In this document: piece after piece, positions 24,491-58,677 of the stretch
Layout of the letters: each line of letters begins with the position of its first letter
How positions within the stretch are numbered: position 1 is the first letter of the stretch
Translations under genes and position numbers: made by a program
The notes under the pieces: model-generated
The model's input: only the letters and a program-made list of their open reading frames with translations
Database searches by the model: none
What the model was told of the DNA's origin: nothing
DNA from: Eledone cirrhosa
Lineage: Eukaryota
Direction of reading: 5' to 3'
Assembly: GCA_964016885.1 (NCBI GenBank)
Contig: OZ024745.1
Span: 94,426,001-94,490,000, forward strand
DNA: 64,000 nucleotides

Positions 24491-24506
24491 CACATACTTT
24501 AATATA

Positions 24507-30309: not shown

Positions 30310-30394
<85 letters not shown>

Positions 30395-30396
<2 letters not shown>

Positions 30397-31074
30397 GGTA
30401 GCTGGACGCACACAATTTTGCTGGTAAGTTTCTGTCAATGTATTAACAAAAAACTGAAATTCTTGTTTAAAAAAAAACACATTATTCTATAGATTAAGCC
30501 CCAGGCTGAATTGTCAGCTGGGTGGCAATCTTATTTTTCGCCCCCAAAGGGGCGATAATTTAATTTGAAATTAATTTGAAAACTGTTTAAACATTTTAAA
30601 TATTTTGCCATCAGCTATGGCAAGCGGCGTTCAAGGAACGCGAGCGAACATTGAAGAAGGAAAAAGAAAAGAAATAGACTTTAACGTTGCTAAAAATTCT
30701 GCCTGTATCGAGGTAGTTAACAACAAAGCTTTGTGTAACGAAAGTGAAGTAGACAACACAAACAAAACTGAATCGCACAGTGAACCACACAGTATACAAC
30801 ACACACTAAAATCAACAAAAAAAAATAATTGACACAACTACAAACGGAAAACCCGACAACAACAACAAAAAAATAACTTATACAGAAATAGTCACAAATA
30901 ATAATAATAACGTTACTTCTAACTCCGCATGTATTGGCGTCACCATAGAAACCAATATGAACAACAAAAATAAAAACAAGATCGAACCACACATAGTACA
31001 ACAGACGGAAAAAACAACAGAAAATAAAACCATTGACACAACTACAAACGGAAAACCTGACAACCACAACAACC

Positions 31075-31134
<60 letters not shown>

Positions 31135-34100
31135 CCAAAAAAACTTTTGCGCAAACAGTCACCAAGACACAAGATTTCACGGATCTCGATATCTCCAATG
31201 CGAAACAAATGCTCTCTGAAGCAAAGGAGTTTATCACTTTCGGTGAAAACGGGGGATTTCAGATAAAATCACCCCCAGAAATTCGTCTGGAAATATTTCG
31301 AAGGACAATCACCTTCAGAAGTGTTTCAAATGAAACAAAAAGACCAGCATTCCTCAGTCAAGGGGAAATTGAGGCAACCTTAATACAGATATTGCCAAAC
31401 ATTGACTTTATGCAGAGGGCCAAACAGTACGGGAGTATTTCGGTACTCCTCAAAAGCGAGGCCCTTGCACAAAGATATTCAGTGACGCCAATATTGTCAC
31501 AAAAATACACCTTTTTCCCTACATAGCGGGGAAACAGGACACAAAAAATTAGAGTTTCAAACATGCCACCAAATATTAATATTTGGTGGATATTGGCAGG
31601 ATTTTTAGAGGAGAGAAAAGACACTATTCTCTCCATCAAAAAGTCAACCAGACACACCTGGTCTGGTACAAATTTGGAGATTCTAGTGCAAATGAGCCCG
31701 GAAAGAATCTCCAAAATAGTAGAAAAAGTGATGGTGGACAACAACAGCCACATAAACATTGTAGGTGAGGGACGAAAACCACATTGCTTTCGTTGCAATA
31801 GCACCACACACTTAAAGGCCTCTTGCCCTTTACAAACACGCTCAACCAAAACAATACAAAAGAAAACACTGTTACCAACACCAACACCAAAGCAACCACC
31901 ACCACCACAAGTACAACGACAGACAAAACGGGCAACCACACCAAAATAATCAGACACGCAACCAACAACAGAAAAAACAGAGACAACACCCCTGAAGAAC
32001 ACAGCCCCACTCCATAAAACACTACCACAAACACACACACCGAAACACCACCACCACCACACAACATACCCCTACCCCACACACCTGACGATGATTATTC
32101 ATCGACGGATGAAGCTGCTTCTCCTTCTTTAAGTGAAGAAGAGGGAGAGCTGCGGATATTTAAAAAACAAAAAAAGTGACACCACAAAACCCCCAAAACT
32201 CCAATCACCAACACCAACACACAACCACAGACACAAACAACAACACAAACAACACCACAGTCAAACGTCCCCCTACCAGCAAAACCAACACCAACACCAC
32301 CCCAACACAAGCACCCACAATAAAAAGAAAACTCCCGGACGAACAACAAACTAAAACAACACAACAAAAACACAAACAACAATACGCATACAGCAACACA
32401 AACAACAAGAGTTTGATGGAGGTCATCTTCCAAAACCCCAAGGTGGAGACGGAGGGCAGAATCATCTCCACACCTTAAACTTATAAGGGTTTCTATGGAG
32501 ACCTATAGTGACCTAAAAAATAAATTTTCACAGGACGTGGGCAACCCCTGCCAGAAACCCATCAACTGCGTCCTGTTAAAATATTTCCCCACCACACCCA
32601 ACACCCCATCCAGCACCCAAATGGAGATTGAACAACCCGATCTCCAGGCAACGAAAAGGTAAGTACACCTTTTCGTCCCTTTTCACCAACTTTTCTTCAC
32701 CAACATGGTTAGTTTACGAGTTGTAACCGTGAATGTGCGTGGCCTAGGGATGCCCTGGAAACAGGGCCAACTTTTAAACGACCTTAGGTCACACAGTATG
32801 GATGTGATAGCCATCACCGAGTCCAGGATCCACAACAGGCAACACTAACCCCATCTTCGACAACTTTGAGATCTACGCATCTCTCTGTCAGCCAGGAGGT
32901 GGAGGTGGAGTGGCTGTTATGTTTCGGAAGAACCTGGACGTCGGAGTACAGCAAGTACACTTGGACCCAGAGGGTAGACTGGTAGTCCTAGACGTGAACA
33001 GTATTGGAGATGGAGCCTTCAGACTGGTGGTCGTTTATACCCCGACCGGCCAATCGCAATCACGGCCAGACTTCTTTAAGCGTCTAGAGTCTTTTCTGGG
33101 AACGTCTCGCTCCTTACTTTTAGAGGGGGACTGGAATAGTATCCTAGATGCACGATGGGACTATGTGGGAGCATGTCCCAGTAGAGCGGGGTGCAACAGC
33201 CTCAAAAGTTTAATCGGCCAATTTCAACTGGCCGATAGGTATCGACTGGATTTCCCGACTGCACCACAGTGGACGTGGGCAAACCACAGCGGGACATCTA
33301 GATCGTATTTAGATAGGTTCTTCATTAGAGAAATTGACAAGGAGATGTTAAGCTGTCCACGAATGCACATGGTTGCCTATTCAGATCACAAGTTAGTCGT
33401 CTGCTTAGTCAACCGTGATAGAATACATAGACGGGGACCCGGATACTGGAAGCTGAACGTGTCGTTGCCGGCACGTAAAGCTTACAGTGAACGGATAAGT
33501 AGATTAGTTAAGCAACAGTTAACGGAAGCCATCGTCAACAATAGATGGTGGTACTCTCTCAAGAATAGAATCGATAGGGTATAGCAGAGAGTTAGCCTTA
33601 GAGAAAAACAGAATAGAAAGAGAACTAGTAGCCAAGGTAGATGAGAGGGGGCACTTAGAAGTGGCAACGCGGCTAGAGTATTAGCGTCAAGAACGGTACT
33701 CGACCAGTTCTTCGATGCGAAACACGAAGGCTGCGTGGTCAGAAGCAAAACACGTGCTCTAGGAAACGAAGGAGCGAAAGCTGTCAGCTGGGCCTGAGCG
33801 GCGGAGGCAAAAAAGTGGCAACAAGTCCACGATTCGGTCTTTGAAAGACCAAAACGGACGCGTGCTACTTGACCCCAAGCAAATGTGCGCGGCCTTTCAG
33901 CGGCACTTTGCGCGACTGTTTGAGCAGAACGACGGTGAGCCGAACGGGGCAATGGACTTTAGTTCATACCTCGATGTCCTACCGCGTCTCTCGAACAAGG
34001 ACGCCGAGTTCTGCGAAAGACTGATCACGGACACTGAGATACGGGACACTCTGGGCCGCTGCGGGAAACGCAAGTCACCCAGTCAAGATGGTCTACCCTA

Positions 34101-36336
34101 TGAGTTTTACATAGGCATGCCGGACTTGTTCTCTGGCATCCTCGAATCCGTCTACTGCAATTGGCAGCAACACGGAAGAATTCCCAGTTCTGCAGGCAAG
34201 GGCGTAGTAACGCTGATCAGGAAAGACGAGAACAAGGGGCCGAAATTAACAACTTCAGACCCATAACTCTGCTCAACACAGACTTAAAGATTTTGGCCAA
34301 GGTGCTAGCGACAAGGTTGGCGCTTGTCGTCGAGAACCTGGTAGGGAAAGCGCAAACGTGTGCAATCCCGACCAGGCCCATACACGACAACCTCCACATC
34401 ATGCGATACATCATAGAAAGGGTGGGTAGTAAAACCGGCTTCGGTGGGGCTCTGATCAATTTGGATCAGTCTAAGGCATTCGATAGGGTCGACCATCGAT
34501 ACTTGGAAGCAGTTCTCAAGCGGCCGGTTTCGGTCCCGTTTTCAGAGTCTGGATCGAGGCGATGCACACCAGCATCTGCTCGAGGGTCAAGGTGAACGGC
34601 TACCTATTGGGGCCGTTCGCAATCACGCGTTCCATTCGACAGAGTGCCCTCTCTCCTCCATTCTCTATGTATCTAGAGCCACTACTGCGTAAATTGGAGC
34701 TGTTGCAGGGCATCCTTCTAGAACCGGGACTGCGGAAAGCGGCGTCGGCTTATGCCGACGACGTGACAGTAATGGTGTCGAGCACCTCGGAAATCGGGGT
34801 GATCGGCAACTTACTGAAATAATACGAAACGCTGACGGAAGCAAAACTAAACCCGGACAAGTCTGTCGGGTGCAATCGGTATGTGGAGAGGCAAACCAAT
34901 GACGTCCGACAGCGTCGTTGGACGCTGGACGGACAGTCCAGTGAAATTGCTCGGGGTCTGGTTCGGTCCAGACCTCCAGGTGGAGAAAAACTGGAACGAG
35001 GTCACGGCCAAGGTGTTTGCGCTCACCCAGAAGTGGGCAGAGGTGGCGAACACTTTCATAGCGTCCGTCATCTACTACCGCTTGACTGTCATGCCTTGTC
35101 CCCGTGAACACTTCGCCAAGATGGAGCGCATGCACTTCCAGTTTCTGTGGAAGAAGCAGGCTGCGCTGGTGAGGAGATCCGACTGCTGTCAGCACCCTTC
35201 CAACGGAGGGCTGGGAATTCCGTGGCTGATGATACGCAAACATGCGCTGAGGCTGTGGCATCTCCAGGTATTCCTCACCGACCCCCAACCGGTGTGGGCA
35301 CCGTTTGTGAGACAGGCATTCCCGCAGCTCGTCTCGCTGACGGAGCTGCAGTCCTGGGTCAAGAAAAGACCGAAAACGATGGGCGCCTGGCACATTGAAT
35401 GCGCTCAGACGCTCACAGTCCTCTGACAAGCGGAAACAGCAATCAGTGGAGACGCCACTTCGACATTCTATAGAGGGATTGTACATTACAAGGGCGACGA
35501 CGTGCTCGGAGAGACTCTGGGCATCGAAGACGATGAGCTCACCAGTCTGTTTGGTAGGACTTTCCGCCCGGAACCTATGGACAACTTCCAGAAGTCCCTA
35601 GCCTGGCAGTGCTACCGAGGAGCTCTACCGGTTCGTGACAAGATCTACAGGCACGGACGCCCCGGCAGGGATCCTTCCAAGAGGACATGTCCAAGATACG
35701 CGCAGGACATTGAAACAGTCCTGCACGCAATTGTACTCTGCCCGGGTGTAACCGAGGTGTGGAACTATGCAGAACAACTGCTGTCGCGTATGGGACAAAT
35801 CCAGTTGACTGCCGAGTCCATAGTAAGGATCAAACCGCCAGCCTCTTTCAAAAACGAAAGAGAGGTGGTTTTCCTCTGTACAGTGGCTATAGTGAAAGAA
35901 GTTATATGTTGGACGAGATTGAGAGGACTGAGGACAGATGCCTTTCTCTCCGGACAGCAATTGATTCCCTTCTTTAAGTATCACTTTAGAAGGAGAATCA
36001 GAGTGGAGAGAGAGGCACTGCACCCCAGTAAATTTACTGAAAGGTGGGTGAATGAAGCGAAAATGGCCGGAGTGATTGGGCCTTCTCTGTTTATAAGCCT
36101 GTAGGTTAAAGAAGAGAGCAAAAGGAAGAAAGGAGCACTTGCACAACTCGCTCCTGGAGTCGAGGGTTGTTCTATCGACGGGGTATTAAAAAACCCGTTT
36201 GTGGCGCTTCCCCCCTATTGGGGATTTCGATTGTTGTAATTGTTTGTTTTTATATTTTAACACGAGTGTATGTAAAATCCCCGGCATGTCTTTGTATTGT
36301 CCCCTTTTCTTGTGCGCCCATGTGGCAAATAAAAAA
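30395..36336 (+). mobile_element. Tx1-clade (L1 group) LINE copy A, full length, decayed
   Basis: Broken ORF1 30617-32662 (CFRC..HLKASC knuckle) and ORF2 32705-36104 (GDWN, SDH, LDQSKAFDRVDH, YADD); flanked by (TATC)n 30310-30394 and 36337-36442. Confidence 0.92.
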
Positions 36337-36352
36337 ATCTATCTATCTATCT

Positions 36353-36399
<47 letters not shown>

Positions 36400-36400
36400 G

Positions 36401-36442
<42 letters not shown>

Positions 36443-36516
36443 GTTTTTATTGTATGTAATCTTCCCCCTTTGTATTTGTCCCCTTCTTTTGTGCCCCTGT
36501 GGCTAATAAAGAAACA
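36443..36516 (+). mobile_element. ~75-bp 3'-terminal fragment of Tx1 subfamily D
   Basis: Nearly identical to 47774-47847; (TATC)n on both sides. Confidence 0.85.
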
Positions 36517-36756
36517 TATCTATCTCTATCTCTCTATCTGATGGACACATGTGCTGAGCTCGCTCGGTAAGTTTTTGTTTAAATTCATACGGAAATTGTA
36601 AACTGTAAACTTTCATTTTTGTATCATTTTGTAGAGGGACTGCCAGGTCAAATTTTGATCTGGTCGGTCTCTCAAAATATTCTGCGCCTTTGGGCGAAAT
36701 AGTATTGTGAACATTTTATCTTTCGAAAAACTTCGAAAAACCCTATTTTGAGAAAA

Positions 36757-36933
36757 ATGGCTGAATCATCTTCACCATCAATCAAAGAAGGAAAGGGGAA
36801 GTCATACTCACAGCTTCCCCCTGCCACTGTCACAGCAGCAGATGCCAAAGGCAGAGGTCAGAGAGAGGAAGAATTGTCTTCACCTGTTGACCGACCACTA
36901 GATGTAGCCACAACTACACAAGAATTTGAAAAC

Positions 36934-36964
<31 letters not shown>

Positions 36965-38607
36965 GCAACAATAAAGACAACAAAAACAACAACAACACAA
37001 ACGTCACAAGTATCCACACACGAAACGAGAAAGACAACAACAACAACAAAGATGAAAACAACTCAAACGACGAGAAACAAAACAATACTAATATCCAAAA
37101 CGAAAACAAAATATCTTTTGCACAAACGGCTAAATTATCAGTCGCTTATGTGCTGGAAGATATTTCAAAAGCAAAAGAAATGCTGGAAAAAGCCAAGAAA
37201 TATGTGTCTTTTGGCGAAAACGGATCGTTTTCTATACATTCACCTCCGGAACTAAAAAGACAGACGGATTTACGAACTGTCGTATTCCGAACAATTTTAA
37301 ATAAAACAAAGAAACCAGCGCAACCATCTCAAGCGGAAACTCAGTTAGTCTTGAAAGACGCGATGAGAGACATCACTTTCATACAAAAGGATAAACTCTA
37401 TGGGAGTTTATCCATATTGATGAAAGACGAATTGGCGGCAAAAAAATACTCTGTGTCGCCAATTCGGTCCACACACTACACCTTCTTCCCTACCTACATG
37501 GGTAAAAAAACCCAGAGGATATGGATAACCACCATCACCCCAAACATAAACTACTGGTGGTTACTAACCGGTTTCCTCAATTTAGACGAGGACAACCTCA
37601 TCTCAATAGGGAAGGCATCCGGCGACGCGTTCAGTGGAACGAGCATCGAAGTTCTGACCCAAATAAGGCCAGAACGCATCGCCCAAATCCCTGAGCGCGT
37701 CATGCTGGATGACCGTACCCACCTCAACATTATTGTGGAGGGTAGGCGTCCCTCCTGTTACCTCTGTGGCAATAGAGGTCACCTGAGGGCTGCCTGTCCC
37801 CAGCTCACACAGAAAAAAACACTGCTACCAACACCAACACCACCCCAACTACAACAACAAAAACAACCACAACAACAACAAAAACCAACAACCCCACCAC
37901 CACCACCACAACAACAACAACAACAAACACGTGAAAAAATAACACAGAATACTGTCCCACCCAATCCCTCCCCACCCAAAACAAATACAAAAACACGCAC
38001 ACCGCAAACACTACCAGAAAACATACCCCTCCCACCCAACAAGGAAGACGAACCTCTTTCGTCGCAAGACGAAAAAGATCCCTTCCAACAAGTAAAAAGA
38101 AAGAAGAGGAGACGCACCACAGACACACATGTTAACTTTAATCCCCCCCAAGAGAACACAAACTACACACAAACCACCCCTCCCTGTCACACAACACTAA
38201 CTGCTACACAAAAAAAGACATTACAATACACATACATGAACACAGACAACAAAGAATTACGGAAAACAATTTCAGCAAACCCTTCGGTCCAAACCGAAGG
38301 GCCAAACTTTATAACTGCTGTGGGACTACCTCATTTGAAAATGATAAAAGTCCCAATGCACTTGTACAAAACACTGAAAATAAATTTCACGGAGGACGTG
38401 GGCCCCCCCTGCGCCAAACCAATCAACCGCGTCCTCCTAAAAAATTTCACCCCCCCACCTCACCCAGACACCCACTCAACGACAAACACCCCAACCCCAC
38501 AACACACCGATGCCCCTTCACTTCCACAAACCACAACCCCACCCAACAACCCATCCCCAACCAGCATGGAAATTGAGCGGCCCGTTTCCCGGGACGCAGA
38601 GAGGTAA
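36757..38607 (+). CDS. Tx1 ORF1p (Gag-like nucleic-acid-binding protein, 616 aa)
   Basis: ATG at 36757; poly-Asn N-terminus, central globular region, CYLCGNRGHLRAAC zinc knuckle, P/Q/T-rich linker, KRKKRRR basic patch. Confidence 0.88.
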
Positions 38608-38631
38608 GTGCCTTTTCTCTTTACCACCAAC

Positions 38632-41600
38632 ATGGCTGTGCTAAGAGTAGGGTGTCTAAATGCGCGTGGCCTGGGCTCGTCTTGGAAGCAAGCAATGCTT
38701 CTAAATGACCTCAGGTCACAATCTATAAATGTGATGGTTATCTGCGAGGCCCGGATCAGCAGCATGCGACAGCTAGCCCCCACCTTTGACGACTTTGAGA
38801 TGCACGCATCTCTCTGTCAGCCCGGAGGTGGGGGTGGGGTTGTCGTTCTGCTGCAAAAACATATGGGCCTTGCAACACAGATAGTTCACTTGGACCCAGG
38901 GGGTCGACTGGTGGTGCTGGACCTTGGCAGTGGTGAAGGTAGAGCCTTTAGGCTGATAGCCGCATATGCCCCTTTTGGGACAGAGCGGCCCGACTTTTTC
39001 CAGCGTCTGGAGTCTTTTCTAGGGACGTCCCGTTCCCTGCTTTTAGTGGGGGATTGGAATGGTATCCTGGATGCACGTTGGGACTATGCAGGGGCATGTC
39101 CCGATAGAGAGGGGTGCAACAGCCTCAAGGGGTTACTCGGCCGATTTGACCTGGCCGATAGATTTCGACTAGATTTTCCGACGGTGCCAACCTGGTCTTG
39201 GTCAAATCGCAGCGGATCATCTAGATCGTACCTAGATAGATTTTTAGTTAGAAATAAGGACAGGGACTTTTTAAGTTGTCCAGAAATGCTCATGGTTGGC
39301 TATTCAGACCACAAGTTGGTGACCTGCATGGTCAACCTTGATAGAACGCATAGACAGGGCCCCGGTTACTGGAAGCTCAACTTGTCCTTGCCGGCAAGTA
39401 GAGCCTACAGGAATCGGATTAGTACGTTAGTTAAGGAACGGTTGACTGGAGCGATCGTCAACAGCAGGTGGTGGGTATCTCTAAAGAGAGAGATTAGAGT
39501 AGTCTCGATTGAATTTAGTAAGGTTCTAGCTGCGGATAGGAATAGGAAGGAAAGGGAGCTAATAGATAGAGTAGAAGAGGCAATTAGAAGCGGCGACGTG
39601 GCCAGAGTGCTAGCGTCGAGAACGGCTTTGAGCCAGTTTTTCGACGCGAAGCACGAAGGCTGCGTTGTCCGAAGTAAAATACGTGCTCTAGGGAACGAGG
39701 GGGCCAAAGCTGTTAGCTGGGCCCGCGTGACAGAGGCCAACAGTGGAACTAAATCCACCATCCGGTCTTTGCGAGACCTGGATGGACGGGCGATTCTTGA
39801 GCCTAAGCAGATGTGTGAGGCCTTTCAAAGGCACTTTGCCCGACTGTTCGGGAGGGGCGGGGAGCCGGTTGGAAACGTGGACTTCGGTCCATACCTCGAC
39901 GGCCTGCCGCGCCTCTCGGACAGGGAGGCGAAGTCTTGCGAGGAGCCGATTTCGGCCGCTGAGATAGAGGACGTGCTGGGCCAATGCGGCAAACGCAAAT
40001 CCCCGGGTCTCGATGGTCTTCCTTACGAATTATATCTAGCTATGCCGGACTTGTTCCCCGATCTCCTCGAGGCGGTCTACTGCAACTGGCAACAGAACGG
40101 GAGAATTCCCTGTACTGTGACCAAGGGCGTAGTCACGCTAGTGAGGAAGGACGAGAACAAGGGGGACGAAATAAGTAACTTCAGGCCCATAACTCTGCTA
40201 AATACAGAGTTACAGATTTTGGCCAAGGTGCTAGCAAAGAGGTTGGCGCTTGTCGTGGGCAACCTGGTGGGAGATGCGCAGACATGCGCTATCCCGTCCA
40301 GGTCCATCCATGACAACCTCCACCTCATGCGATACATCATAGAGAGGGTTGGGAACGAACCCGGCTTTGGTGGGGCTCTGATCAACTTGGATCAATCTAA
40401 GGCGTTCGATAGGGTCGACCATGGTTACCTGGATGCGGTGCTAGCGGCGGCAGGCTTCGGACCCGTTTTCAGGGGCTGGATCACTGCTATGCACAGCAGC
40501 CGCATCTGCTCTAGGGTCAAGGTGAACGGCTACCTCTCGGAGCCGTTCAAAATCGCGCGGTCCATCCGACAAGGGTGCCCTCTCTCCTCCCTTCTGTATG
40601 TGTTGACTCTCGAGCCACTACTGCGGAAGTTGGAGTTGTTGCAGGGCATCCCTTTGGAACCGGGATTGCGGAAAGCGGTGTCAGCCTACGCCGATGATGT
40701 GACAGTAATGGTGTCGACGGCCTCCGAAATCGAGGCGGTCGGCACCTTACTGGAGGAGTACGAAAAGTTCACAGGGGCTAAGCTGAACCGGGACAAGTCG
40801 ATCGGTTTGCAACTCGGCACGTGGAGGGGCAGACCGATGCCCTCCGATGGCGTCGTCGGACGCTGGACGGAGGGCCCGGTGAAGTTGCTCGGGGTCTGGT
40901 TCGGACCGGACCTCCAGGTGGAGAAAAACTGGGCGGAGGTTACGAACAGGGTGTTTGCACTGACCCAGAAGTGGGCCAGTTGCAAACTATCCCTGAAAGG
41001 TCGGGCGGAGGTGGCGAACACTTATATAGCGTCCGTCATCTACTACCGCCTGACCGTAGTGCCCTGCCCAAGGGAAACCCTCACCAAGATGGAGCGCGCG
41101 CTCTTCCAATTCCTTTGGAAGGGGCGGGCTCCTATGGTGAGGAGATCCATCTGCTGTCAACACCCTTCGAAAGGAGGGCTGGGGATGCCGTGGCTAATGA
41201 TGCGTAAACACGCATTAAGGCTACGGCACCTCTACGTATTCCTCACCGGACAACCGGTGTGGGCCCCGTTTGTGAGACGAACCTTTCCCAGACTCGTCTC
41301 ACTCACCGAACTGCAATCCTGGGTCAAGCAGAGACCGAGAAAACTGGGCGCCTGGCACACTGAGTGTGCCCAGGCGCTCACCGCCCTCTGGCAGGCGGAT
41401 CCGGTTATCAGTGGAGACTCCACCGCAACATTCTATAGAGGGCTGGTACGCAGCAGGTGCGACGACGCCCTCGGAGAAGCCCTAGACATGGAGGAGGACG
41501 AACTGGCCAGCCTGTTCGGTAGGACATTCAGCCCGGGACCTATGGACAACTTCCAGAAGTCCCTGGCCTGGCAGTGCTACCGAGGGGCTTTACCCGTTCG

Positions 41601-42069: not shown

Positions 42070-42341
42070 GTGGAAAAGAGGAAGGAACGAGGGAGCACCC
42101 CCTCTCTGTGCTCCTGAGGAAAAGGGTTGCACACTTTTTTCGGGGGTGTGTGCGACCCCCCAAGGCGCCTCCTCTCTATTGAGGATTTTGTTAAAAATTT
42201 TATTTTTTGTTATATCTTATTTTATTTTTATATTTTGTTATTGCCTCCTCCTTATTGAGGACGCCTTTTTGTGTAAACTCCCCCCTTTGTACTTGTCCCA
42301 CTTTTGATGCCCTAGTGGCAAATAAAAGAAACTTATCTATC

Positions 42342-45300: not shown

Positions 45301-47847
45301 CAAAGCTGTTAGCTGGGCCATAAGTGGCAAAAAGTGGCAACAGGTCCACGATTCGGTCTTTGAAAGACCAAGACAGACGCGTGATACGTGAGCCGAAGCA
45401 GATGTGTGCGGCCTTTCAGCGGCACATTGTTCAACTGTTCGGGCAGGGCGGCGCGCCGGGAGGGGCTATGGATTTCGGTCCATACGTCGACGGCCTACCG
45501 CGACTCTCGGACAGCGAGGCGAAGTTCTGCGAAAAGCCGATTTCAGCCGCTGAGATAGGGGACGCGATGAGCCAATGCGGCAAACGCAAATCTCCAGGTC
45601 TCGACGGTCTACCCTACGAAGTTTACGTAGCAATGCCGGACTTATTCTCCGGTCTCCTGGAAGCGGTCTACTGCAACTGGCAGCAGAACGGGAGAATTCC
45701 CAGTTCTGTGACCGGGGGCGTAGTCACACTAGTCAGGAAGGACGAGAATAAGGGGGATGACATAGGCAACTTCCGGCCCATAACTCTGCTAAACACAGTT
45801 ACAGATTTTGGCCAATGTGTTGGCAAAGAGGCTGGCGCTTGTCGTCGAGAACCTGGTGGGAGAAGCGCAGACATGCGCAATCACGAACAGGTCCATACAC
45901 GACAACCTCCACCATCATAGAAAGGGTGGGGTGTAAACCCTGCTTCGGTGGGGCCCTGATCAACTTGGATCAGTCTAAGGCTTTCGATAAGGTTGACCAT
46001 GGTTACCTAAATGCGGTGCTCGAGGCGGCAGGCTTCGGACCCCTGTTCACGGGCTGGATTGCTGCAATGCACAACAGAAACATCTGCAACATCTGCTCGG
46101 AACCGTTCTATATCACGCGATCCGTTCGACAAGGATGCCCTCTCTCCTCCCTTCTGTACGTACTGACTCTCGGGCCAACACTGCGGAAGTTTGAGCTATT
46201 GCAGGGCATCCCTCTTGAACCAGGACTGCGGAAAGCGGCGTCGACCTACGCCGACGACGTGGCAGTAAAGGTGTCGAGCGCCTCGCAAATCGGGGAAGTC
46301 GGCACCGTACTGAAGGAATACGAAAGGTTCACAGGAGCGAAGCTGAACCGGGACAAGTCCATCGGTTTGCAACTCGGATCGTTGAGAGGCAAACTGATGC
46401 CTTCCGATGGCGTCGTCGGACGCTGGACGGAAGGACCGGTAAAGCTGCTCGGGGTCTGGTTTGGTCCGGACCTCCAGGTGGAGAAGAACTGGAACGAGGT
46501 GACGGCCAAGGTGTTTGTACTCACCCAGAAGTGGGCCGAGTGCAAACTATCCTTGAAAGGTCGAGTGGAGGTGGCGGACACTTTGATAGCGTCCGCCATC
46601 TACTACCGATTGACCGTCGTGCCTTGTCCAGCCAAAACGCTCACCAAAATGAAGCGCGCGCTCTTCCAATTCCTTTGGAGGAGGCGGGCTCCTTTGGTGA
46701 GAAGATCCATCTGCTGCCAACACCCTTCCAACGGAGGGCTGGGGCTGCCGTGGCTGACGATGCACAAACACGCGCGCAGGTGGCGGCATCTCTACGTATT
46801 CCTCACCAGACAACCGGTGTGGGCCCCGTTCGTGAGGCGAGCCTGACAACGACTCGTCTCGCTGACCGAGCTGCAGTCCTGGGTCAAGCAAAGCCGAGGA
46901 AAATGGGCGACTGGCATATCGAATGTACTCAGGCGCTCACACCCCTCTGGCAGGCGGACCCGGCGATCAGTGGAGACTCTACTTCGTCATTCTATAGAGG
47001 GTTGATCCGCAGCAAGTGAAACTCTAGGCGTAGAGGAAGATGAACTGGCCAGTCTGTTCGGTAGGACCTTCCGCCCGGGACCGATGGACAACTTCCAAAA
47101 GTCCCTAGCCTGGCAGTGCTACTGAGGAGCTCTACCAGTTCGAGACAGGTTCTACAGACATGGGCGCCCGGGCAGGGACCCTTCGAAAAAGATCTGCCCG
47201 AGGTGCGTGCGCGACGAAGAATCCGTCGCGCACGCATTCACACACTACCCCGGCGTTACCGACCTGTGGGGCTATGTAGAACGACTATTGTCCCGGGTGG
47301 GACCAATCCGGTTGACCACCGAGTCCATTGTCATGATCAAACCGCCACCCTCCTTCAAAAATGTAGGAGAGGCGGTTTTCCTTTGTGTGATAGCTATGGC
47401 GAAAGAGGTTGTATGGTGGACAAGGTTGAAAGGGCTGAGGTCAGACACCTTTCTCTCCGGCCAACAACTAATTCTTCTTTTCAAATACCACTTTAGAAGA
47501 TGAATCAGGATGGAGAGAGCGGTGCTGTACCCCAGCAAGTTTTATGAAAGGTGGGTGAAAGTGGCGAGAATGGCCCGAGTGAATGGGCCTTCTCTCTATA
47601 TCAGCCTGTAGGTTGAGGAAAAAGAGGAGGTGAGGAAAGGGGTACAAACTCTTCGTACTCCTGGAGATGAGGGTTGCACATTTTACGGAGGTATGTTTTA
47701 CCCATATGTAATGTCTCGCCCTATTGGGGAAAATCGATTAACTTTTAAATTGTATTTGTGATAGTATTTTACACGTTTTTATTGTATGTAAACTTCCCCC
47801 TTTGTATTTGTCCCCTTCTTTTGTGCCCCTGTGGCTAATAAAGAAAC
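42342..47847 (+). mobile_element. Tx1 copy D, truncated near ORF1 start, decayed
   Basis: ORF1 remnant to 44208, ORF2 44246-47611 with frameshifts; ends AATAAAGAAACATATCTATC. Confidence 0.92.
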
Positions 47848-47856
47848 ATATCTATC

Positions 47857-50800
47857 AAAACAAACACCCACACCACCACAATCACAAACCCCAACCACAA
47901 AAAGAAAACTACAAAGAGAAACAGTACACATAAAAAACAAAACACACTACACATACATAAAAACAAGAAACAAAGAACTGGTGGAAACTGTCCGAAAGGA
48001 CCCCACAATACAAACGGAAGGGAAAACCTTTCCCACCAACGACCAACCCCCAAACCTCAAACTTATCAGGGTAACAACCCTACAGTATGAAAGTTTAAAA
48101 GAGAACTTCCCACATGATGTGGGCCCCCCTTGCCAAAAGCCGCTTAACCGTGTCCTGCTAAAAGGATTCCCTCCCTCCCAAAACACCACCAATCTGGACA
48201 TGGAGATCGAACAACCCGACCTCCAGGAAACGAAAAGGTAAGTGTTCCTGCCTTTTCTCTCCTTAACTCTTCTTCACCAACATGGCGACTATACAAGCTG
48301 GATGTTTGAATGTACGTGGCCTTGGCATGCCCTGGAAACAGGGCCAGTTTTAAATGATCTCAGGTCACATTGTATAGATGTGATAGCCATCACCGAGTCC
48401 AGGATTCACGACAAGCAGCAGCTATGTCTATGATTTTGAGATCTACGCATCTCTCTGTCAGTCAGGAGGTGGAGGGGGAGTTGCTGTTCTGTTTCGAAAA
48501 AACTTGGATCTCAAAATACAGACGATTCAGTTGAACCCGGAGGGCAGCCTGGTGGTCCTGGACGTGAATGGTAGTGAAGGTGGAGCTTTCAGACTAGTGG
48601 CCGTATATGCCCCGACTGGCACATCGCGACCAGAGTTCTTCAAGCGTCTGGAGCCATTCCTGGGAACGTCACGCTCCTTAGTGTTAGCGGGGGATTGGAA
48701 TGGCATCTTAGACGCACGTTAGGACTATGTAGGAGCTTGTGATCATAGAGGCGGGGGGGGGGGGGTGTAATCGCCTCAAAAATCTCATCAGTCAATTCCA
48801 ACTGGCTGATAGATATCGACGAGACTTCCCAAGTGTACCACTGTGGACGTGAAGCAACCGCACTGGGTCTTCTAGATCGTATTTAGATAGATTTTTGATT
48901 AGATAAGGAAACATTAAGCAGATTAGATAAGGAAACATTAAGCTGTTCACAAATGCACATGGTTGCCTATTCAGTCAACCTTGATAGAACACATAGACAG
49001 GGACCCGGATACTGGAAGCTAAACATGTCGCTCTCGGCGCGTAAGGCCTACAGTAAACGGATTAGCACCTTAGTTAAGTGTCAGTTGACGGGGGCGATCG
49101 TCAGCAACAGGTGGTGGAGCTCTCTCAAGAGAGCAATTAGAATAGAATCGATAGCATTTGACAAGGACGTAGCTTTAGAAAAAACAAAACTGTAAAGGAA
49201 CTAGACCAGTTCTTCAGCGTGAAACACGACGGTTGTATTGTCAGAAGTAGAACACGTGCTCTAAGAAACGAGGGAGCCAAAGCTGTTAGCTGGGCCGAGT
49301 GGCAGAAGCGAAAAGTGGCAACAAATCCATTATTCGATCTTTGCAAGACAAAGATGGACGCATTCTACTTAAACCCAAGCAGATGTGCGCGGCCTTCCAG
49401 CAGCATTTTGCACAACTGCTCGGACAAAGCGGTTCATCGAGCGAGGTGATGGACTTCAGCTCCTACCTCGACGGCGTACCGCGACTCTCTAGCATGGATG
49501 CGAAACGCTGCGAAAGGCCGATCACAGCGGGCGAAATAGAAGATGCCCTAGGCCGCTGCGAGAAACGCAAACCACCAGGTTAAGATGGTCTACTCTATTA
49601 GTTTTAAATAGGCATGCCAGACTTGTTCTCTGGCGTCCTCGAAGCGGTCTACTGCAACTGGCAGCAGAACGCGAGGATTCCCAGTTCTGTAGGCAGAGGC
49701 GTAGTAACGCAGATCATGAAAGATGATAACAAGGGGGATGAGATAAGCAATTTCAGGCCCATAACATTGAGTTAAAGATTTTGGCCAAGATGTTAGCAGC
49801 AAGGCTGGCGCTTGTCGTCGAGAACCTGGTAGGGGAAGCTCAAACGTGTGCAATCCCGACCAGGTCTATACACGACAACCTCCACCTCATACGATACATC
49901 ATAGAGAAGGTAGGGTGTAATCCTGGTTTCGGTGGGGCTCTGATCAATTTAGATCAGTCTAAGGCATTTGACAGGGTCGACCATCAATACTTGGAAGCAG
50001 TTCTCAAGTCGGTCGGCTTCGGTCCCGTCTTCAGATGCTGGATCGCTGCCATGCACACCAGCATCTGCTCGACAGTCAAGGTGAATGGCTACCTATCAGA
50101 GCCATTCCAAATCATGCGTTCTATCCGTCAGGGATGCCCTCTCTCCTCCATTCTGTATGTACTGACTCTAGAGCCGTTACTGCGGAAATTGGAGCTGTTG
50201 CAGGGCATCCCGAATACGAAACGTTGACAGGAGCAAGACTAAACTCAAACAAGTCTGTCGGTTTGCAATTCGGCTCATGGAGAGGCAAGCCCATGCCTTC
50301 CGACTGTGTCGTTGGACGCTGGACGGAAGGACCGGTGAAATTGCACGGGGTCTGGTTCGGTCCAGACCTCCAGGTGGACAAGAACTGGAACGAGGTCACG
50401 GCGAAGGTGTTTGCACCCACCCAGAAGTGGGCTGAGTGCAAACGCTGCTTAAAAGGCCGAGCGGAGGTGGCGAACACTTACATAGCGTCCGTCATCTACT
50501 ACCGCTTGAGAGTCGTGCCTTGCCCCCGCGAATACCTTACCAAAATGGAACGCCTACTCTTCAAGTTCCTCTGGAAGAAACAGGCTCCATTGGTGAGAAG
50601 ATCCATCCGCTGTCAACACCCTTCTAACGGAGGGCTGGGCATGCCGTAGCTGCTGATGCGCAAACATGCGCTGAGGCTACGCCATCTCCAGGTATTCCTG
50701 ACCGGTGAACCGGAGTGGCTTTCGTTTGTGAGACAAGCTCTTCCACAACTCGTCTCACTAACAGAGCTGCAGTCCTGGGTCAAGCAAAGACCGAAAATGG

Positions 50801-51769
50801 GTGCCTGGCACCTCGAGTACCTACAGGTGCTCGTAGCCCTCTACCAAGCGGAAACGGCAATCAGCGGAGACTCCACTTCGCATTCTATAGGGGATTAGTG
50901 GAGGATAAGTGCGACGATGTTCTCGGGGAACTTCGAGGCATCGAGGAGGACGAACTGACCAGTCTGTTCGGGAGGACTTTCCGTCCAGGGACTATGGATA
51001 ACTTCCAGAGCACTCTGGCCTGGCAGTGTTACCGAAGAGCTCTACCAGTTCGAGACAAAATCTACAGGCACGGACGCCCTGGCAGAGATTTTGCCAAAAG
51101 GACATGTCCAAGATGCGAGCAGGACATCGAAATCGTTCTGCACGCAATTGTTCAGTGCCCAGGGGTGACCGACCTGTGGAATTATGTTGAACAGCTGCTG
51201 TCACGCGTGGGAGGCATCCAGTTGTCAGCCGAGTCCATCGTGAGGATCACCCCTCCGCATACATTTAAGAACGAAATAGAGGCGGTTTTACTCTGTCTGG
51301 TGGCTATGGCGAAAGAGGTAATATGGTGGACGAGGTTAAAAGGACTGAAGGCAAACACCTTTCTCTCCGGACAACAACTTATCCCCTTCTTTAAGTATCA
51401 CTTCTGAAGGAAGGTGAGTGTGGAGAGAGAGGTGCTACACCCCAGTAAATTCGCTGAAAGGTGGGTGAATGTGCCAAAAATGGCCCGAGTGAATGGGCCT
51501 TCTCTGTATATAAACCTGTAGGTTGAGGAAGATTAACAGAGGGAAGACAGGAACACCTACAAAACGTGTTCCTGGTGTTGAAGGTTGTTCTATCTACGGG
51601 GTGTAAAACAACCCTGCAATAACGTCCCCCCCCCTTCTAGGTATTTCAATTGTTATTTTATTATATATAGTTTATTGTTATTTATTAATGTTAAAGTTAT
51701 TTTTATGTAAAACTCCCGCCGTCACGTCTTGTAATGTCCCATTTTTGTACGCCCCTGTGGCAAATAAAG
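47857..51769 (+). mobile_element. Tx1 copy E, 5'-truncated in ORF1, decayed
   Basis: ORF1 C-terminus to 48241, ORF2 48282-51521 with deletions and stops; close relative of copy G. Confidence 0.92.
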
Positions 51770-51780
51770 ATATCTATCTA

Positions 51781-52750
51781 GTGTGCCCAGGCGCTCACGG
51801 CTCTCTGGCAGGCGGACCCGGCTGTCAGTGGAGAATCCACCTCGTTATTCTATAGAGGCCTGGTGGTTAGCAGGTGCGACGACGCCCTCGGAGAAGCCCT
51901 AGGCATGGAGGAAGACGAACTGGCCAACCTGTTCGGTAGGACATTCAGCTCGGGACCCATGGATAACTTCCAGAGGTCCCTGGCCTGGCAGTGCTACAGA
52001 AGGGTTCTGCCCGTTCGAGAAAGGCTCTACAGACACGGGCGCCCGGGTAGGGACCCCTCGAAAAAGATCTGTCCCAGATGCGTGTGCGACGAGGAAACCG
52101 TTGCACACGCATTGGTACACTGCTCGGGCATTGCCGATCTGTGGGGCTATGTCTAACAACTGCTGTCAAGGGTGGGACCGATCCGGTTGACACCGAGTCT
52201 ATTGTAACAATCAAGCCGCCTCCCCTCTTCAAAAACGAAGGAGAGGCGGTGTTTCTGTGCGTAATAGCCATGGCGAAAGAGGTTGTATGGTGGACGCGTC
52301 TGAAAGGACTGAGGTCAGACACCTTTCTCTCTGGCCAACAACTGGTCCGTTTCTTTCGATATCATTTCGGAAGAAGGATCAGGATGGAGAGAGAGGTGCT
52401 GTACCCCAGCCGTTTTATGAAAGATGGGTGAAAGTGGTGAGAATGGCCCGTGTGAATGGGCCTTCACTCCACATCAGACTATAGGTGAGGAAGATGAAAG
52501 ACCAAGGGAGCACCCCCTCTCTGTGCTCCTGAGGAGAAGGGTTGCACACTTTGTTTCGGGGGTGTGTGCGACCCCCCAAGGCGCCTCCTCCCTATTGAGG
52601 ATTTTGTTATAAATTTTATTTTGTTATATTTTATTTTATTTTTATATTTTGTTATTGCCTCCTCCTTATTGAGGTCGCCTTGTCATGTAAACTCCCTCCA
52701 TTGTACTTGTCCCACTTTTTGATGCCCTGGTGGCAAATAAAAAGAAAATG
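51781..52750 (+). mobile_element. Tx1 copy F, ~1-kb 3' fragment of the B subfamily
   Basis: Colinear with 41364-42330; followed by (TATC)n 52751-52847. Confidence 0.92.
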
Positions 52751-52846
<96 letters not shown>

Positions 52847-52847
52847 C

Positions 52848-55800
52848 TGGGATGGACACATGTGTTAAACTTGCTCGGTAAGTTTTGTTTAAATTTCTTT
52901 AGAAATTCGTCATTGTGAACTTTTATTTTTATACCAATTTGTAGAGGGACTGACTGGTCAAATTTTGATCTGGTCAGTCTCCCAAAATATCGTGCCCCTC
53001 AGGGCAAAAACATCCAACATATTTTCGAAAATGTTTTTGCAAAACACTTCAATTTAAAAAAAATGGCCGAAGCAAAGGCACCTACTTTTTTGTCAATACA
53101 AGAAGATGGGAAGGGAAAGCCATGCCTACTTGACCAGCAGCTAGTATCAGACATGGACAAAGGAATGCCAACATCCTCACCTCAATATTTAGAAGAGGAA
53201 CAAGCTTCAGTTGTTTGTAAGCAACTGAACACGGCTGACGTCACATACGTCACATGTATCCACATACAGAAGGAAGAATGTGTAGCAAATACTAACACCA
53301 CCACAAGCAACAACAACAACAACACAATAAATTAGAACAACAACAATACAACAAAAGGAATCAGCGACAACACAACGAATGAGACCATCATCACCAACAA
53401 CAACAATAACAAAATTTCATTTGCAGCAACCGTTGCTATGCAACAGGATTTTAAATATTACCCCATGGACATTTCCCAAAAGTCCAAACATTTGGAAGAA
53501 GCTTCCAACTATGTGACGTTTGAGGGAGACACCCCACACATACACATACCCCCACAAGTAAGAGAGATGACACAGAAAAAGAAACTGATCTATAGAACAG
53601 TTGACATCATTACTAAAAAACCCATAACGCTCCCAACAAGCACTATTGAAGCTGCACTAAAAGTTATCAAGCCAGACGTGGCATACCTCCAAAGAGCTAA
53701 ACAGTATGGAAGTGTGTCAGTTCTCTTTAAGAGCGAAACTCTGGCTCAAAAACACTCGGTTCACCCAATAAAAACGGATCAACACATCTTCTTCCCCACA
53801 TACATGGGAAGAAGATCTTACAAAATAAAAATAACCAGGATCCCAGCAGAGGTCAACATATGGTGGATCCTGCGCTGCATCCCGAAGAAGGATGAGAACA
53901 CCCTCCTATCTGTAGACAGGACAGACCGGAATAACTGGTTTGCAACCTGCATCGAGGTTCTGATACAAATTAGGCCAGAGAGAGTTGAGAAAATCCCGGA
54001 CAGGATCATCCTGTGGATCATTTTAGTGGAGGGAAAAAGACCTCAGTGCCATAAGTGTGGGAAAACCACACCTAAAGGCTTTTTGCCCTCTCTTAAACAA
54101 ACCGAGGACAAACAGGGTGTTTTACCAGCACCAAAACCCCAACATCAACACCTCAAACAAAACACAACACAAAAACCTGCAACATCCACTCCCACACCAC
54201 CAGAGACCAGAGACAGCCACACACACACAATCCCACTGAAAACCCCTCCATTGCCTCCTCACTCCCTGTCAAATACTTCCACAAACACCTGCACAAACAC
54301 TCCACCACACAACATACCCCTCCCATCTACCCTTGATTCATAAGTCTCAGACACGGGAACCTCTACATCTCCAAATGAGAATGACGAGGAACCCCAAAAA
54401 TCAAAAAACAAAAAAGAGACAAAAAAACAAAAACAAAAACATCTACAGAAAACCCGCACACACCCAACCCCCCATAAACACACCGCCACAAACGACAAAC
54501 ACACCAACAACACAATCACCACCAACACAACCAAACACTTCACCAACAAAACAAACACCGACACCACCACAATCACAAACCCCAACCACAAAAAGAAAAC
54601 TACAAAGAGAAACTACACATTAAAAACAAAACACACTACACATACATAAAAACAACAAACAAAGAACTAGTAGAAACTGTCCGAAAGGACCCTACTATCA
54701 AAACGGAAGGGAAAACCTTCCCCACCAACGACCCACCCCAAACCTCAAACTGATCAGGGTAACAACCCTACAACATGAAACATTGAAAGGGACCTTCCCA
54801 CACGATGTGAGCCCACCTTGCCAAAAAAACCTTAACCGTGTCCTGCTAAAAGGATTCCCTCCCTCCCCAAATACCACCAATCTGGACATGGAGATCGAAC
54901 AACCCGACCTCCAAGAAACGAAAAGGTAAGTGTTCCTGCCTTTTCTCTCCCTAACTCTTCTTCACCAACATGGCGACTATACAAGCTGGATGTTTGAATG
55001 TACGTGGCCGGGGCATGCCCTGGAAACAGTGCTAGCTTTTAAATGATCTCAGGTCACATTGTATAGATGTGATAGCCATCACCGAGTCCAGGATTCACGA
55101 CAAGCAGCAGCTAACCCCCATGTTCGATGACTTTGAGATCTACGCATCTCTCTGTTAGCCAGGAGGTGGAGGAGGAGTTGCTGTTCTGTTTCGAATAAAC
55201 TTGAATCTCAAAGCACAGACGATTCACTTGGACCCGGAGGGCAGCATGGTGGTCCTGGAGGTGAATGGTAGTGAAGGTGGAGCTTTCAGACTGGTGGCCG
55301 TATATGCCCCGACTAGGACATCACGATCAGAGTTCTTCAAGCGTCTGGAACCATTCCTGGGAACGTCTCGCTCCTTAGTGTTAGCGGGGGACTGGAATGG
55401 CATCTTAAATGCCGGTTGGGACTATGTAGGTGCTTGTGATCATAGAGAGGCGGGGGGTGTGATAGCCTCAAAAATCTCATCAGTCAATTCCAACTGGCTG
55501 ATAGATATCGACGAGACTTCCCATATGTACCACTGTGGACGTGGAGCAACTGCACTGGGTCTTCTAGATCGTATTTAGATAGATTTTTAATTAGACAGAA
55601 TGATAAGGAAACATTAAGCTGTCCACAAATGCACATGGTTGCCTATTCAGACCAAAAATTAGTCACCTGCGTAGTTAACCTTGATATAACACATAGACAG
55701 GGATCCGGATAGTGGAAGCTAAACATGTCGCTTCCGGCGCGTAAGGCCTACAGTTAACTGATTAGCACCTTAGTTAAGTGCCAGTTGACGGGGGCGATCG

Positions 55801-58641
55801 TCAACAACAGGTGGTGGAGCTCTCTCAAGAGAGAAATTAGAATAGAATCGATAGCATTTAGCAAGGAAGTAGCTTTAGAAAAAAGCAAAACCGAAAAGGA
55901 ACTGGTAGCTAAAGTAGAAGAGGCACTTAGGAATGGCAGTACAGCTGACATGTTAGCGGCGAGAACGGCACTAGACCAGTTGTTCAACGTGAAACACGAA
56001 GGTTGTATTGTCAGAAGTAGAATACGTGCTCTAAGAGACGAGGGAGCCAAAGCTGTTAGCAGGTCGAGAGTGACAGAGGCGAAAAGTGGCAACAAATCCA
56101 CAAATCGGTCTTTGCAAGACAAAGATGGACGCATTCTACTTGAATCCAAGCAGATGTGCACGGCCTTCCAGCAGTATTTTGCACAACTGTTCGGACAAAG
56201 CGGTACTTCATGGGAGGTGATGGACTTCAGCTCCTATCTCGACAGCGTATGACGACTCTCAAGCACGGATGCAGAGAGCTACGAAAGGCCGATCACAGCG
56301 GGCGAAATAGAAGATTCCCTAGGCCGCTGCGGGAAACGCAAATCACCCGGTTTAAAAGGTCTACCCTATGAGTTGTACATAGGCATGCCAGACTTGTTCT
56401 CTGGCGTCCTCGAAGCGGTCTACTGCAACTGGCAGCAGAACAGGAGGATTCCCAGTTCTGTAGGCAGAGGCGTAGTAACGCTGATCAGGAAAGATGAGAA
56501 CAAGGGGGATGAGATAAGCAATTTCAGGCCCATAACTCTGCTCAACACAGAGTTAAAGATTTTGGCCAAGGTGTTAGCAGCGAAGCTGGCGCTTGTCGTC
56601 GAGAACTAGGCAGGGGGAGCGCAAATGTGTGCACTCCCAACCAAGTCCATACACGACAACCTCCACCTCATGCGATACATCATAGAGAAGGTAGGGTGTA
56701 AACCTGGTTTCGGTGGGGCTCTGATCAATTTAGATCAGTCTAAGGCATTTGATAGGGTCGACGATCAATACATTGAAGCGGTTCTCAAGGTGGCTGGCTT
56801 CAGTCCCGTCTTCAGAGGCTGGATAGCTGCCATCCACACCAGCATCTGCTCGACAGTCAAGGTGAATGGCTACCTATCGGAGTCATTCCAAATCATGCGT
56901 TCCATCCGTCAGGGGTGCCCTATATCCTTCATTCTGTGTGTACTGACTCTCAAGCCATTACTGCGGAAGTTGGAGTTGTTGCAGGGCATACCGATCGACC
57001 CAAGACTGGGGAAAGCAGCGTCGTTCTATGCCAACGAGATAACCGTAATGGTGTCGAGAACCTTGGACATCGGGGTAATCGGCAACCTATTATAGGAATA
57101 CGAAACGTTGACAGGAGCAAGACTAAACCCTAAAAGGTCTGTCGGTTTGCAACTCGGCACATTGAGGAGCAACCCCATGCCTTCCGACAGTGACGTTGGT
57201 GAAATTGCTCGGGGTCTGGTTTGGTCCAGACCGCCAAGTGGACAAGAACTGGAACGAGGTCACGGCGAAGGTGTTTGCACTCACCCAGAAGTGGGCTGAG
57301 TGCAAACTCTCCTTGAAAGGTCGAGCGGAGGTGGCGAACACTTACATAGCGTCCGTCATCTACTACCGCTTGACAGTCGTGCCTTGTCCCGGCGAATACC
57401 TCACCAAAATGGAACGCCTATTCTTCAAGTTCCTCTGGAAGAAACAGGCTCCATTGGTGAGGAAATCCATCCGCTGTCAACACCCTTCTAACGGAGATCT
57501 GGGCATGCCATGGCTGATGATGTGCATGCATGCGCTGAGGCTACGCCATCTCCAGGTATTTCTGACCGGCACACCACCGGTGTGGCTGACATTTGTGAGA
57601 TGAGCTCTTCCACAACTCGTCTCACTAACAGAGCTGCAGTCCTGGGTCAAGCGAAGACCGAAAATGGGCGCCTGGCACCTTGAGTGCCTTCAAGCGTCTC
57701 AGCCCTCTACCAAGTGGAAACGGCATTCAGCGGAGACTCCACTTCGACATTCTATAGGGGATTAGTGGAGGATAAATGCGACGACGTTCTCGAGGAAACT
57801 CTAGGCATCGAGGAAGGCGAACTGACCAGTCTGTTCTGGAGGACTTTCCGTCCAGGGCCTATGGATAACTTAAAGAGGACTCTGGCCTGGCAGTGCTACC
57901 GAGGAGCTCTACCAGTTCGAGACAAAATCTACAGGCACGGACGCCCTGGCAGAGATCCTGCCAATAGGACCTGTCCAAGATGCGAGCAGGACATCGAAAC
58001 CATCCTGCACGCAATTGTTCAGCGCCCAGGGGTGACCGACCTGTGGAATTATGTTCAGCAGCTGCTGTCACGTGTAGGACACATCCAGTTGTCAGCCGAG
58101 TCCATCGTGAGGATCACCCCTCCGCATACATTTAAGAACGAAGTAGAGGCGGTTTTCCTCTGTCTAGTGGCTATGGCGAAAGAGGTAATATGGTGAACGA
58201 GGTTAAAAGGACTGAGGGCAAGCACCTTTCTATCCGGACAACAACTCATCCCCTTCTTTAAGTATCACTCAGAAGGAAGGTGAGTGTGGAGAGAGAGGTG
58301 CTACACCCCAGTAAATTCGCTGAAAGGTGGGTGAATGTGGCGAAAATGGCCCGGGTGAATGGGCCTTCTCTGTATATAAACCTATAAGTTGAGGAAGATA
58401 AACATAGGGAAGACGGGAACAACTACAAAACGTGTTCCTGGTGTTGAGGGTTGTTCTATCCACGGAGTGTAAAACAACTCACAGTAGCGTTACCCCCCCC
58501 CCTAACGGGCGATTTCAATTGTTTTATTTTTATATAGTTTATTGTTATATATCATTGTTAAAGATTTTATGAAAAACCCCAGCCGTCATCTCTTGTAATG
58601 TCCCATTTTTGTACGCCCCTGTGGCAAATAAATAAAGATAA
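52848..58641 (+). mobile_element. Tx1 copy G, full length, decayed
   Basis: 5'UTR like copy B (GATGGACACATGTG..GCTCGGTAAG); ORF1 53063-54929 and ORF2 54970-58387 with stops; ends GTGGCAAATAAATAAAG..CTATCTATC. Confidence 0.92.
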
Positions 58642-58677
58642 CTATCTATCCCTCTCTCTCTTTCTTTCTCTCTTTCT

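Follow-up and report, generated by a model that had tools for sequence, protein, structure and literature searches.

Co-oriented L1/Tx1-type LINEs stacked at TATC sites in the genome of Eledone cirrhosa

The window analyzed here, a stretch of 64,000 nucleotides (C5:94426001-94490000) in a genome of 3.0 Gb, contains a stack of LINE copies that most probably arose as seven separate insertions of a recently active L1/Tx1-type lineage into sites of the form Y|TATMTAT, with the element's own APE endonuclease likely nicking the GATA strand. One of the seven, copy B, is intact and a member of a young family, and the element is real both in its target specificity and in its self-seeding. Insertions of this kind would leave the element flanked at either end by TATC motifs of one orientation, presenting a target for later subfamilies.

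Organization of the stack

The seven co-oriented pieces described in the first-pass annotation were recovered by blastn and tblastn between positions 30395 and 58642; with the copy B proteins as tblastn queries, ORF2 was found in A, B, D, E, F, and G and ORF1 in the same set minus F. All features lie on the + strand. The 5' edge of the stack is a (TATC)n tract (30311..30394), followed by copy A (30395..36339), which is near full length, has ORFs broken by stops and frameshifts, and has a 3' end at most 96% identical to other genomic copies. A (TATC)n tract of ~26 units (36340..36442) leads to a 5'-truncated, 74-bp D-type 3' end (36443..36516), identical to D at 73 of 74 positions. Next come TATCTATC (36517..36524), likely the 5' member of an 8-bp target duplication made by B; the TATC-like 5' head of B (36525..36539), whose 15 bases also precede copy L160 and which likely transposed with the element; and copy B itself (36540..42333), full length, with its nearest full-length relative 3 substitutions away (median, 16). 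The 5' copy of D's 17-bp target-site duplication (TSD) (42334..42350), the last 4 bases of which also fit D itself (microhomology), precedes copy D (42351..47848), which is frameshifted and slightly 5' truncated; the 3' copy of that duplication (47849..47865) consists of TATCTATC and the first 9 bases of copy E (47857..51770), a G-type, 5'-truncated copy with two internal deletions. The junction TATCTATCTA (51771..51780) separates E from copy F (51781..52753), a B-related, 5'-truncated piece of ~1 kb, and a (TATC)23 tract (52754..52845) separates F from copy G (52846..58642), which is full length with broken ORFs and a 3' end at most 93% identical to other genomic copies. The stack closes with TATCTATC (58643..58650), beyond which lies TC/TA microsatellite DNA.

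The sequence TATCTATC, claimed earlier for every junction, is present on the + strand at all eight (30311-30394, 36340-36442, 36517-36524, 42334-42341, 47849-47856, 51771-51778, 52754-52845, and 58643-58650), whereas in a background sample of 20 x 10 kb, read on both strands, it starts at 38 of 400,000 positions. There are 13 + strand (TATC)2+ runs in the window, and only 2 of them (at 288 and 18036) lie outside the stack. The absence of related pieces elsewhere in the window was likewise borne out, with no blastn match outside 30300-58660 and a single tblastn match, at E 0.29. The proposed subfamily pairings hold (B/F, 92.1% identity; D/fragment, 98.6%; E/G, ~89.4%), with the remaining copy pairs ~74-79% identical in long alignments; the size given for the D-type fragment, 75 bp, is corrected to 74 bp. 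The window also contains a minisatellite with ~196 copies of a 24-bp unit (19764-24492).

Copy B and its family

ORF1 of copy B (P0001; 36757..38607; 634 aa, stop to stop) encodes a single, weak CCHC zinc knuckle that falls below the Pfam cut-off, and an Atlas lead (0.90) points to a ZCCHC3-type RNA-binding cluster. The ORF1 typical of the Tx1 clade is of the gag-like type, with an RNA-binding domain and a CCHC knuckle. ORF2 (P0002; 38608..42069; 1153 aa, stop to stop) encodes an APE endonuclease, a reverse transcriptase (RT) with the YADD motif, and a zf-RVT-like domain, with Pfam Exo_endo_phos and RVT_1 above the cut-off and zf-RVT just below it. Its endonuclease and RT motifs align with those of human L1 ORF2, the best match in the PDB (E 3.5e-48, residues 13-865); the only other match there was R2, at best E 6.5e-19. 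ORF2 accordingly has the features of the L1 group, namely, an N-terminal APE endonuclease, an RT nearer to L1 than to RLE-type elements, and a C-terminal zinc-binding domain, and the copies bear the marks of target-primed reverse transcription (5' truncation, a fixed 3' end, and TSDs). Membership of the Tx1 clade is plausible; no labelled Tx1 element came up in the protein searches. Among named proteins, the closest come from Argonauta hians (63-67% identity), in keeping with an octopod host.

The last 194 bases of B are 100% identical in 40 of 40 scored matches, among the matches listed, and both ORFs are kept in 28 of 39 full-length B copies; these copies, like the samples of A, D, and G discussed below, represent the best 40 matches rather than random draws. 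A 17-base 3'-end motif occurs 24,811 times in the genome, a count that takes in sister families with other targets, against 0 occurrences of the reversed control. A metagenome scan returned 55 loci with best segments 21-62% identical, none of them a close relative.

B-family copies (L151-L189, L371, L381, and L411) are haplotype mosaics, and in some a B 3' end continues into a 5' part of more distant type, a pattern that points to template switching or gene conversion. In L187, an internal deletion of ~330 bp fuses ORF1 to ORF2 in frame (1532 aa); splicing was rejected as its origin because the deletion lies away from the GTAAGT site. An intron-like GTAAGT...TAG segment is conserved in the 5' UTR yet kept in the DNA copies (B, 36567-36635; similar segments in A, near 30424-30492, and in G, near 52879-52945), and AG|GTAAGT also overlaps the ORF1 stop at ~38604; the 5' UTR donor motif is missing from the stretch read of the satellite family described below. 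A small stem-loop is predicted just before AATAAA (window 42300-42326 and matching ends) in six of the seven copies (A, B, D, E, F, and the fragment). At the 3' junctions of L108, L104, L084, and L038, the last bases of the element are repeated in very short duplications, or 12 nt are inserted together with a separate 17-bp duplication, which suggests abortive starts of reverse transcription.

Target sites across the genome

The flanks of genomic 3' ends support the proposal that the element targets TATC: TATCT directly follows 305 of 362 young B-type ends, compared with 0.24% of background positions (950 of 400,000; 20 x 10 kb, both strands). On the forward strand, TATCT lies within 2-14 nt of 9,235 of 12,740 family 3' ends, against a background of 3.0%; only forward-strand counts were used, since those on the reverse strand count one site several times. 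A census of C1 took in all 60 young B ends, with both sides available for 59 (L417, with a 3' flank of TATAT, was left out). The first five bases of the 3' flank are TATCT in 42 of these, TATAT in 14, and another sequence in 3; the consensus is TATMTATMT, and 30 of the 59 flanks start with TATCTATC. Per site, TATCTAT is favored ~200-fold, with 37 TATCTAT and 12 TATATAT sites occupied against 106 and 7,304 in a background of only 200 kb. The targeting seen by the first-pass annotation is therefore real, but its description as specific for (TATC)n is too narrow, the motif being a leaky one of ~7 bp, Y|TATMTAT, with TATAT as the start at close to a quarter of the census sites (14/59).

Exceptions among the first 30 family ends on C1 revealed two other targets, (ATT)n and a satellite. 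The ATT family ends before (ATT)n (1,481 matches; loci L337-L366 and L419-L426); one copy, L424, has an open frame of 1129 aa, and several adjoin a SINE-like repeat that is also found in the window at 1116-1872 and 19043-19522. The satellite family, with an overall identity to B of ~78% and 305 matches to its own 3'-end motif, occupies a fixed register of a ~70-bp satellite and is found at ACTCT in 30 of 30 loci (L427-L456). One of these loci is truncated and has its own 9-bp TSD, and the other 29 have no resolved junction within 1.5 kb; the full-length copies examined have one common 5' junction, and some of the loci may therefore reflect spread together with the host repeat. An array of six satellite-family copies lies at G000:C1:4221001-4263000 (L295-L299). 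A DNA tree of ORF2 (11 rows) nests the satellite family within the TATC group as the sister of B (100/100), and monophyly of the TATC-targeting copies is rejected (AU test, p 0.00016), with mosaic copies as a caveat. A protein tree that preceded the DNA tree had the same shape and placed the ATT family outside. The endonucleases of B and the satellite family are 76% identical, with nearly the same hairpin loops, and the TATC and satellite sites both have TCTAT at positions 3-7.

Mechanism of target choice

The junctions have a consistent geometry, consisting of a fixed last base of the element, no poly(A), next bases that come from the target, and ~8-20 bp of duplicated target. In the mechanism that we propose, the APE endonuclease would nick the bottom (GATA) strand at 5'-AKATA^R-3', the 3' end at the nick would prime reverse transcription at the last base of the element, and a second nick downstream would make the TSD. 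This order of events has a high probability, and the role assigned to the enzyme is likely in light of Tx1L and L1; specificity set by the endonuclease has been shown for Tx1L, and that of L1 is shaped by a hairpin loop (PMC1950540). Points that weigh against the mechanism are that this loop does not sort by target here, being nearly the same in the TATC-, satellite-, and ATT-targeting families, and that specificity is leaky, with TATAT sites, truncated copies lacking a TSD of at least 8 bp, and a few unrelated 5' flanks (counts below and above).

Target choice might instead be inherited partly through RNA, with the endonuclease reading only a core such as NNTCTAT or an AT-rich structure and the site fixed by pairing of read-through RNA, derived from the 3' flank of the donor copy, with the nicked strand. 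We consider this account unlikely, and a contribution of RNA-target pairing alongside the endonuclease mechanism, with which it is compatible, is tentative to the same degree. AATAAA lies ~7 nt before the end of the element and no poly(A) follows, so that a processed RNA would be expected to run into the flank. The satellite family, although sister to B, uses ACTCTAT, which shares TCTAT (30/30 loci), with its hairpin loop nearly unchanged, and RNA-target pairing has been proposed for SART1 and R1Bm (PMC7265360). Against such pairing, B copies flanked by TATAT show no grouping by haplotype (p 0.03 in one test of six and 0.10-0.67 in the others), no extra TATC units are present at non-repeat sites, and the endonucleases differ by ~24%, with 8 columns fixed between groups, which is enough for a switch through the protein only. 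Pairing in register would itself leave no trace in the sequence. Since the genome holds intact young elements and a close sister family that uses another site and has an endonuclease of known divergence (76% identity), the question of protein versus RNA is directly testable.

In full-length copies, the TSD and the GATGG start of the element are separated by a head of 0-22 nt that resembles TATC or TC repeats; L403 has no such head. The head adds TATC that is missing from the 3' flank at (TA)n or unique sites (L172, L165, and L375), which points to transcription that likely starts in the upstream repeat and copies the head along with the element. The five copies with a head ending in TAATCTAC are exactly the five of 39 that have two shared private substitutions, and they sit at different loci with different flanks; the match amounts to 1 in 575,757 by arithmetic and was noticed after the fact. 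Overall, head type and haplotype showed no significant association in a permutation test (L187 left out), with p 0.11 for 8-nt classes and 0.998 for 5-nt classes. An inherited TATC-like head would bring TATC to new sites. A broader and more speculative version, which we rate as improbable, has the RNA carry a copy of the landing site at both ends, so that a single off-target founder could switch target (from TATCTAT to ACTCTAT in a satellite) with little change of the endonuclease and the element would be a main source of long GATA repeats in the genome; the 5' head would then plant GATA repeats at (TA)n or unique sites, and the read-through 3' flank would pair with the nick.

5' flanks and target site duplications

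Whether TATC precedes insertion was examined in truncated copies, which cannot carry a 5' head. In the 25 nt upstream of the 43 truncated young copies on C1, at least two TATC units are found in 19, (TA)4+ in 7, one TATMT in 12, and none of these in 5, against background frequencies of 0.66%, 6.8%, 9.7%, and 82.8%, respectively; TATC, TA, or TATMT sequence is thus present on the 5' side in 38 of 43 (L333 and L315 were left out of the tally of 5' flanks and TSDs, and L406 was counted as truncated though its junction is doubtful). TSDs of at least 8 bp occur in 28 of the 43, and the other 15 have none. Nonperiodic TSDs of at least 9 bp were found in 12 of 57 resolved copies, whereas 300 shuffles gave 1.1 on average and never more than 5. 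Where the site is not a repeat, the base next to the element is already the first of the TSD, and neither additional units nor poly(A) intervene. Because the nonperiodic TSDs start exactly at the element's end, TATC is the target rather than a tail.

The older A, D, and G copies present the same picture in 50 resolved 5' flanks, with at least two TATC units in 34, one TATMT in 8, none in 7, and a GATA tract in 1 (the sample comprised 87 loci, 37 of them without a 5' junction within 1.5 kb, and excluded the window's own copies). The GATA tract, in opposite orientation, flanks L115, a G-type copy, and is the sole such case among the 50.

The contrary pattern named in the first-pass annotation, with TATC only as a 3' tail and unrelated sequence at the 5' flank, is not what these copies show, as truncated copies have target-like 5' flanks and nonperiodic TSDs begin with TATMT. 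A tail made by the element itself upon untargeted insertion would fit the near invariance of TAT just past the element (positions 1, 2, and 3 agree in 58, 59, and 58 of 59 flanks) and the 5 of 43 truncated copies with an unrelated 5' flank in the 25 nt upstream, but it is highly improbable given that position 4 tracks the target (C or A), that two or more upstream TATC units occur in 19 truncated copies, far above background, and that at non-repeat sites the 5' TSD copy also begins with TATMT while the 3' end has no added units (L017, L008, L165, L377, L401, L405, L389, L395, and L418).

Growth of the stack

The order of events is partly recorded in the junctions. The 17-mer TATCTATCAAAACAAAC is present both before D (42334) and after it (47849), and E starts with the nine bases that end this 17-mer; in a comparison with a relative of D, only the last four bases of the 17-mer also fit D. 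The presence of TATCTATCAAAACAAAC on both sides indicates that the target duplicated by D at its insertion extended over the first 9 bases of E. The earlier statement that the pieces are never nested is correct in that no piece interrupts another, yet it requires this qualification. D accordingly went into the 8-bp junction ahead of E, duplicating that junction, and B then came to lie before D, likely with a duplication of 8 bp. We rejected a simple ordering of the stack from young to old, since B, the youngest copy, lies inside it with the older A upstream.

At locus L185/L407, a 12-bp TSD takes in the start of the next copy, as with D. The first 100 family ends on C1 give 99 neighboring pairs, of which 33 are at most 8 kb apart (expected, 4.1%), and 31 of these 33 close pairs are co-oriented, versus 26 of 66 distant pairs; two clusters have six members, one being the satellite-family array. 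For young B copies on C1, a co-oriented relative lies within 250 nt downstream in 13 of 60. Since stacking is frequent genome-wide, the seven-copy stack represents the upper end of a common pattern. The suggestion that each insertion leaves a target for the next is directly supported by the TSD of D, that of L185/L407, and the genome-wide co-oriented clustering.

Tandem duplication, unequal exchange, mis-assembly, and a passive build-up of copies in neutral DNA, the last being the published reading for Drosophila Waldo (PMC3812793), are very improbable as origins of the stack: copies elsewhere are mosaic and some arrays contain near-identical copies, but in the window adjacent copies share only ~73-82% identity and are 5' truncated at different points, a separate 17-bp TSD flanks D, the AC, AT, and TGTA repeats that fill the rest of the window contain no copy, and TATCT sites dominate even though background (TA)n and TATC tracts number 293 to 10. 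Successive targeted insertion is the reading that we retain.

Comparison with known elements

Mutsu has 5S as its target. Among elements that insert into repeats, Kibi and Koshi of teleosts target (TC)n and (TTC)n, crocodilian Tx1 families target (TTCC)n or (TTTC)n, and Keno targets U2 (PMC4494074); the targets that the first-pass annotation gave for Kibi, Koshi, and Keno are the same. How APE-type LINEs choose microsatellites is not well understood (PMC3812793). Like Kibi, Koshi, and the crocodilian families, the stack family is an L1-group, APE-type LINE that inserts into a microsatellite (PMC4494074, PMC3812793), and more than 20% of its flanks have one sequence type, the measure of microsatellite specificity used in PMC4494074 (30 of 59 3' flanks and 19 of 43 truncated 5' flanks). 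Unlike Kibi and Koshi, it uses a TATC/GATA unit (3' flank, TATMTATMT) rather than (TC)n or (TTC)n, resides in an octopod, has a motif leaky to (TA)n, and has ~24,800 genomic family 3' ends, all targets taken together. In octopods and their relatives, 13 recently active L1-Tx1 families are reported from Octopus vulgaris, without named targets in the text available (PMC13282606), and L1-Tx1 elements have expanded in coleoids (PMC8967140).

Published target lists comprise ACAY, AC, TC, TTC, TAA, and TG (PMC3812793, PMC4640811). GATA/TATC is absent from those lists, as far as the text available from the two papers goes, and from the main text of PMC4494074, whose figure labels and supplements may list further targets; the literature searched contained no GATA- or TATC-targeting family, a search that had Repbase outside its scope and does not establish absence from print. 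Waldo (ACAY), Mino (AC), Dong (TAA), and Togen (TG) are also non-LTR elements with microsatellite targets but belong to other clades (PMC3812793, PMC4640811). SART1Bm and R1Bm of the R1 clade are repeat-targeting APE LINEs as well, in which target-like RNA may pair with the nicked strand; they differ in clade and in their targets, a telomeric repeat and 28S rDNA, and SART1 has a poly(A), which the stack family lacks (PMC7265360).

Xenopus Tx1L, which inserts into Tx1D, and crocodilian Tx1-Mar/SINEU-3 rely on a sequence-specific APE endonuclease (PMC4494074, PMC1950540), as the stack family likely does. The stack resembles the tandem SINEU-3 insertions that sandwich a TSD (PMC4494074), and the sister family at a fixed satellite register can be likened to Tx1L, Tx1-Mar, and SINEU-3. 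These three target DNA transposons, whereas the stack in the window targets a simple repeat (PMC4494074, PMC1950540). TATC/GATA is thereby added to the targets listed for LINEs, and in such genomes a GATA locus can harbor insertion polymorphisms of large size. Seeking out repeats is itself a known habit, and what appears to be new for elements of this kind is the TATC/GATA target.
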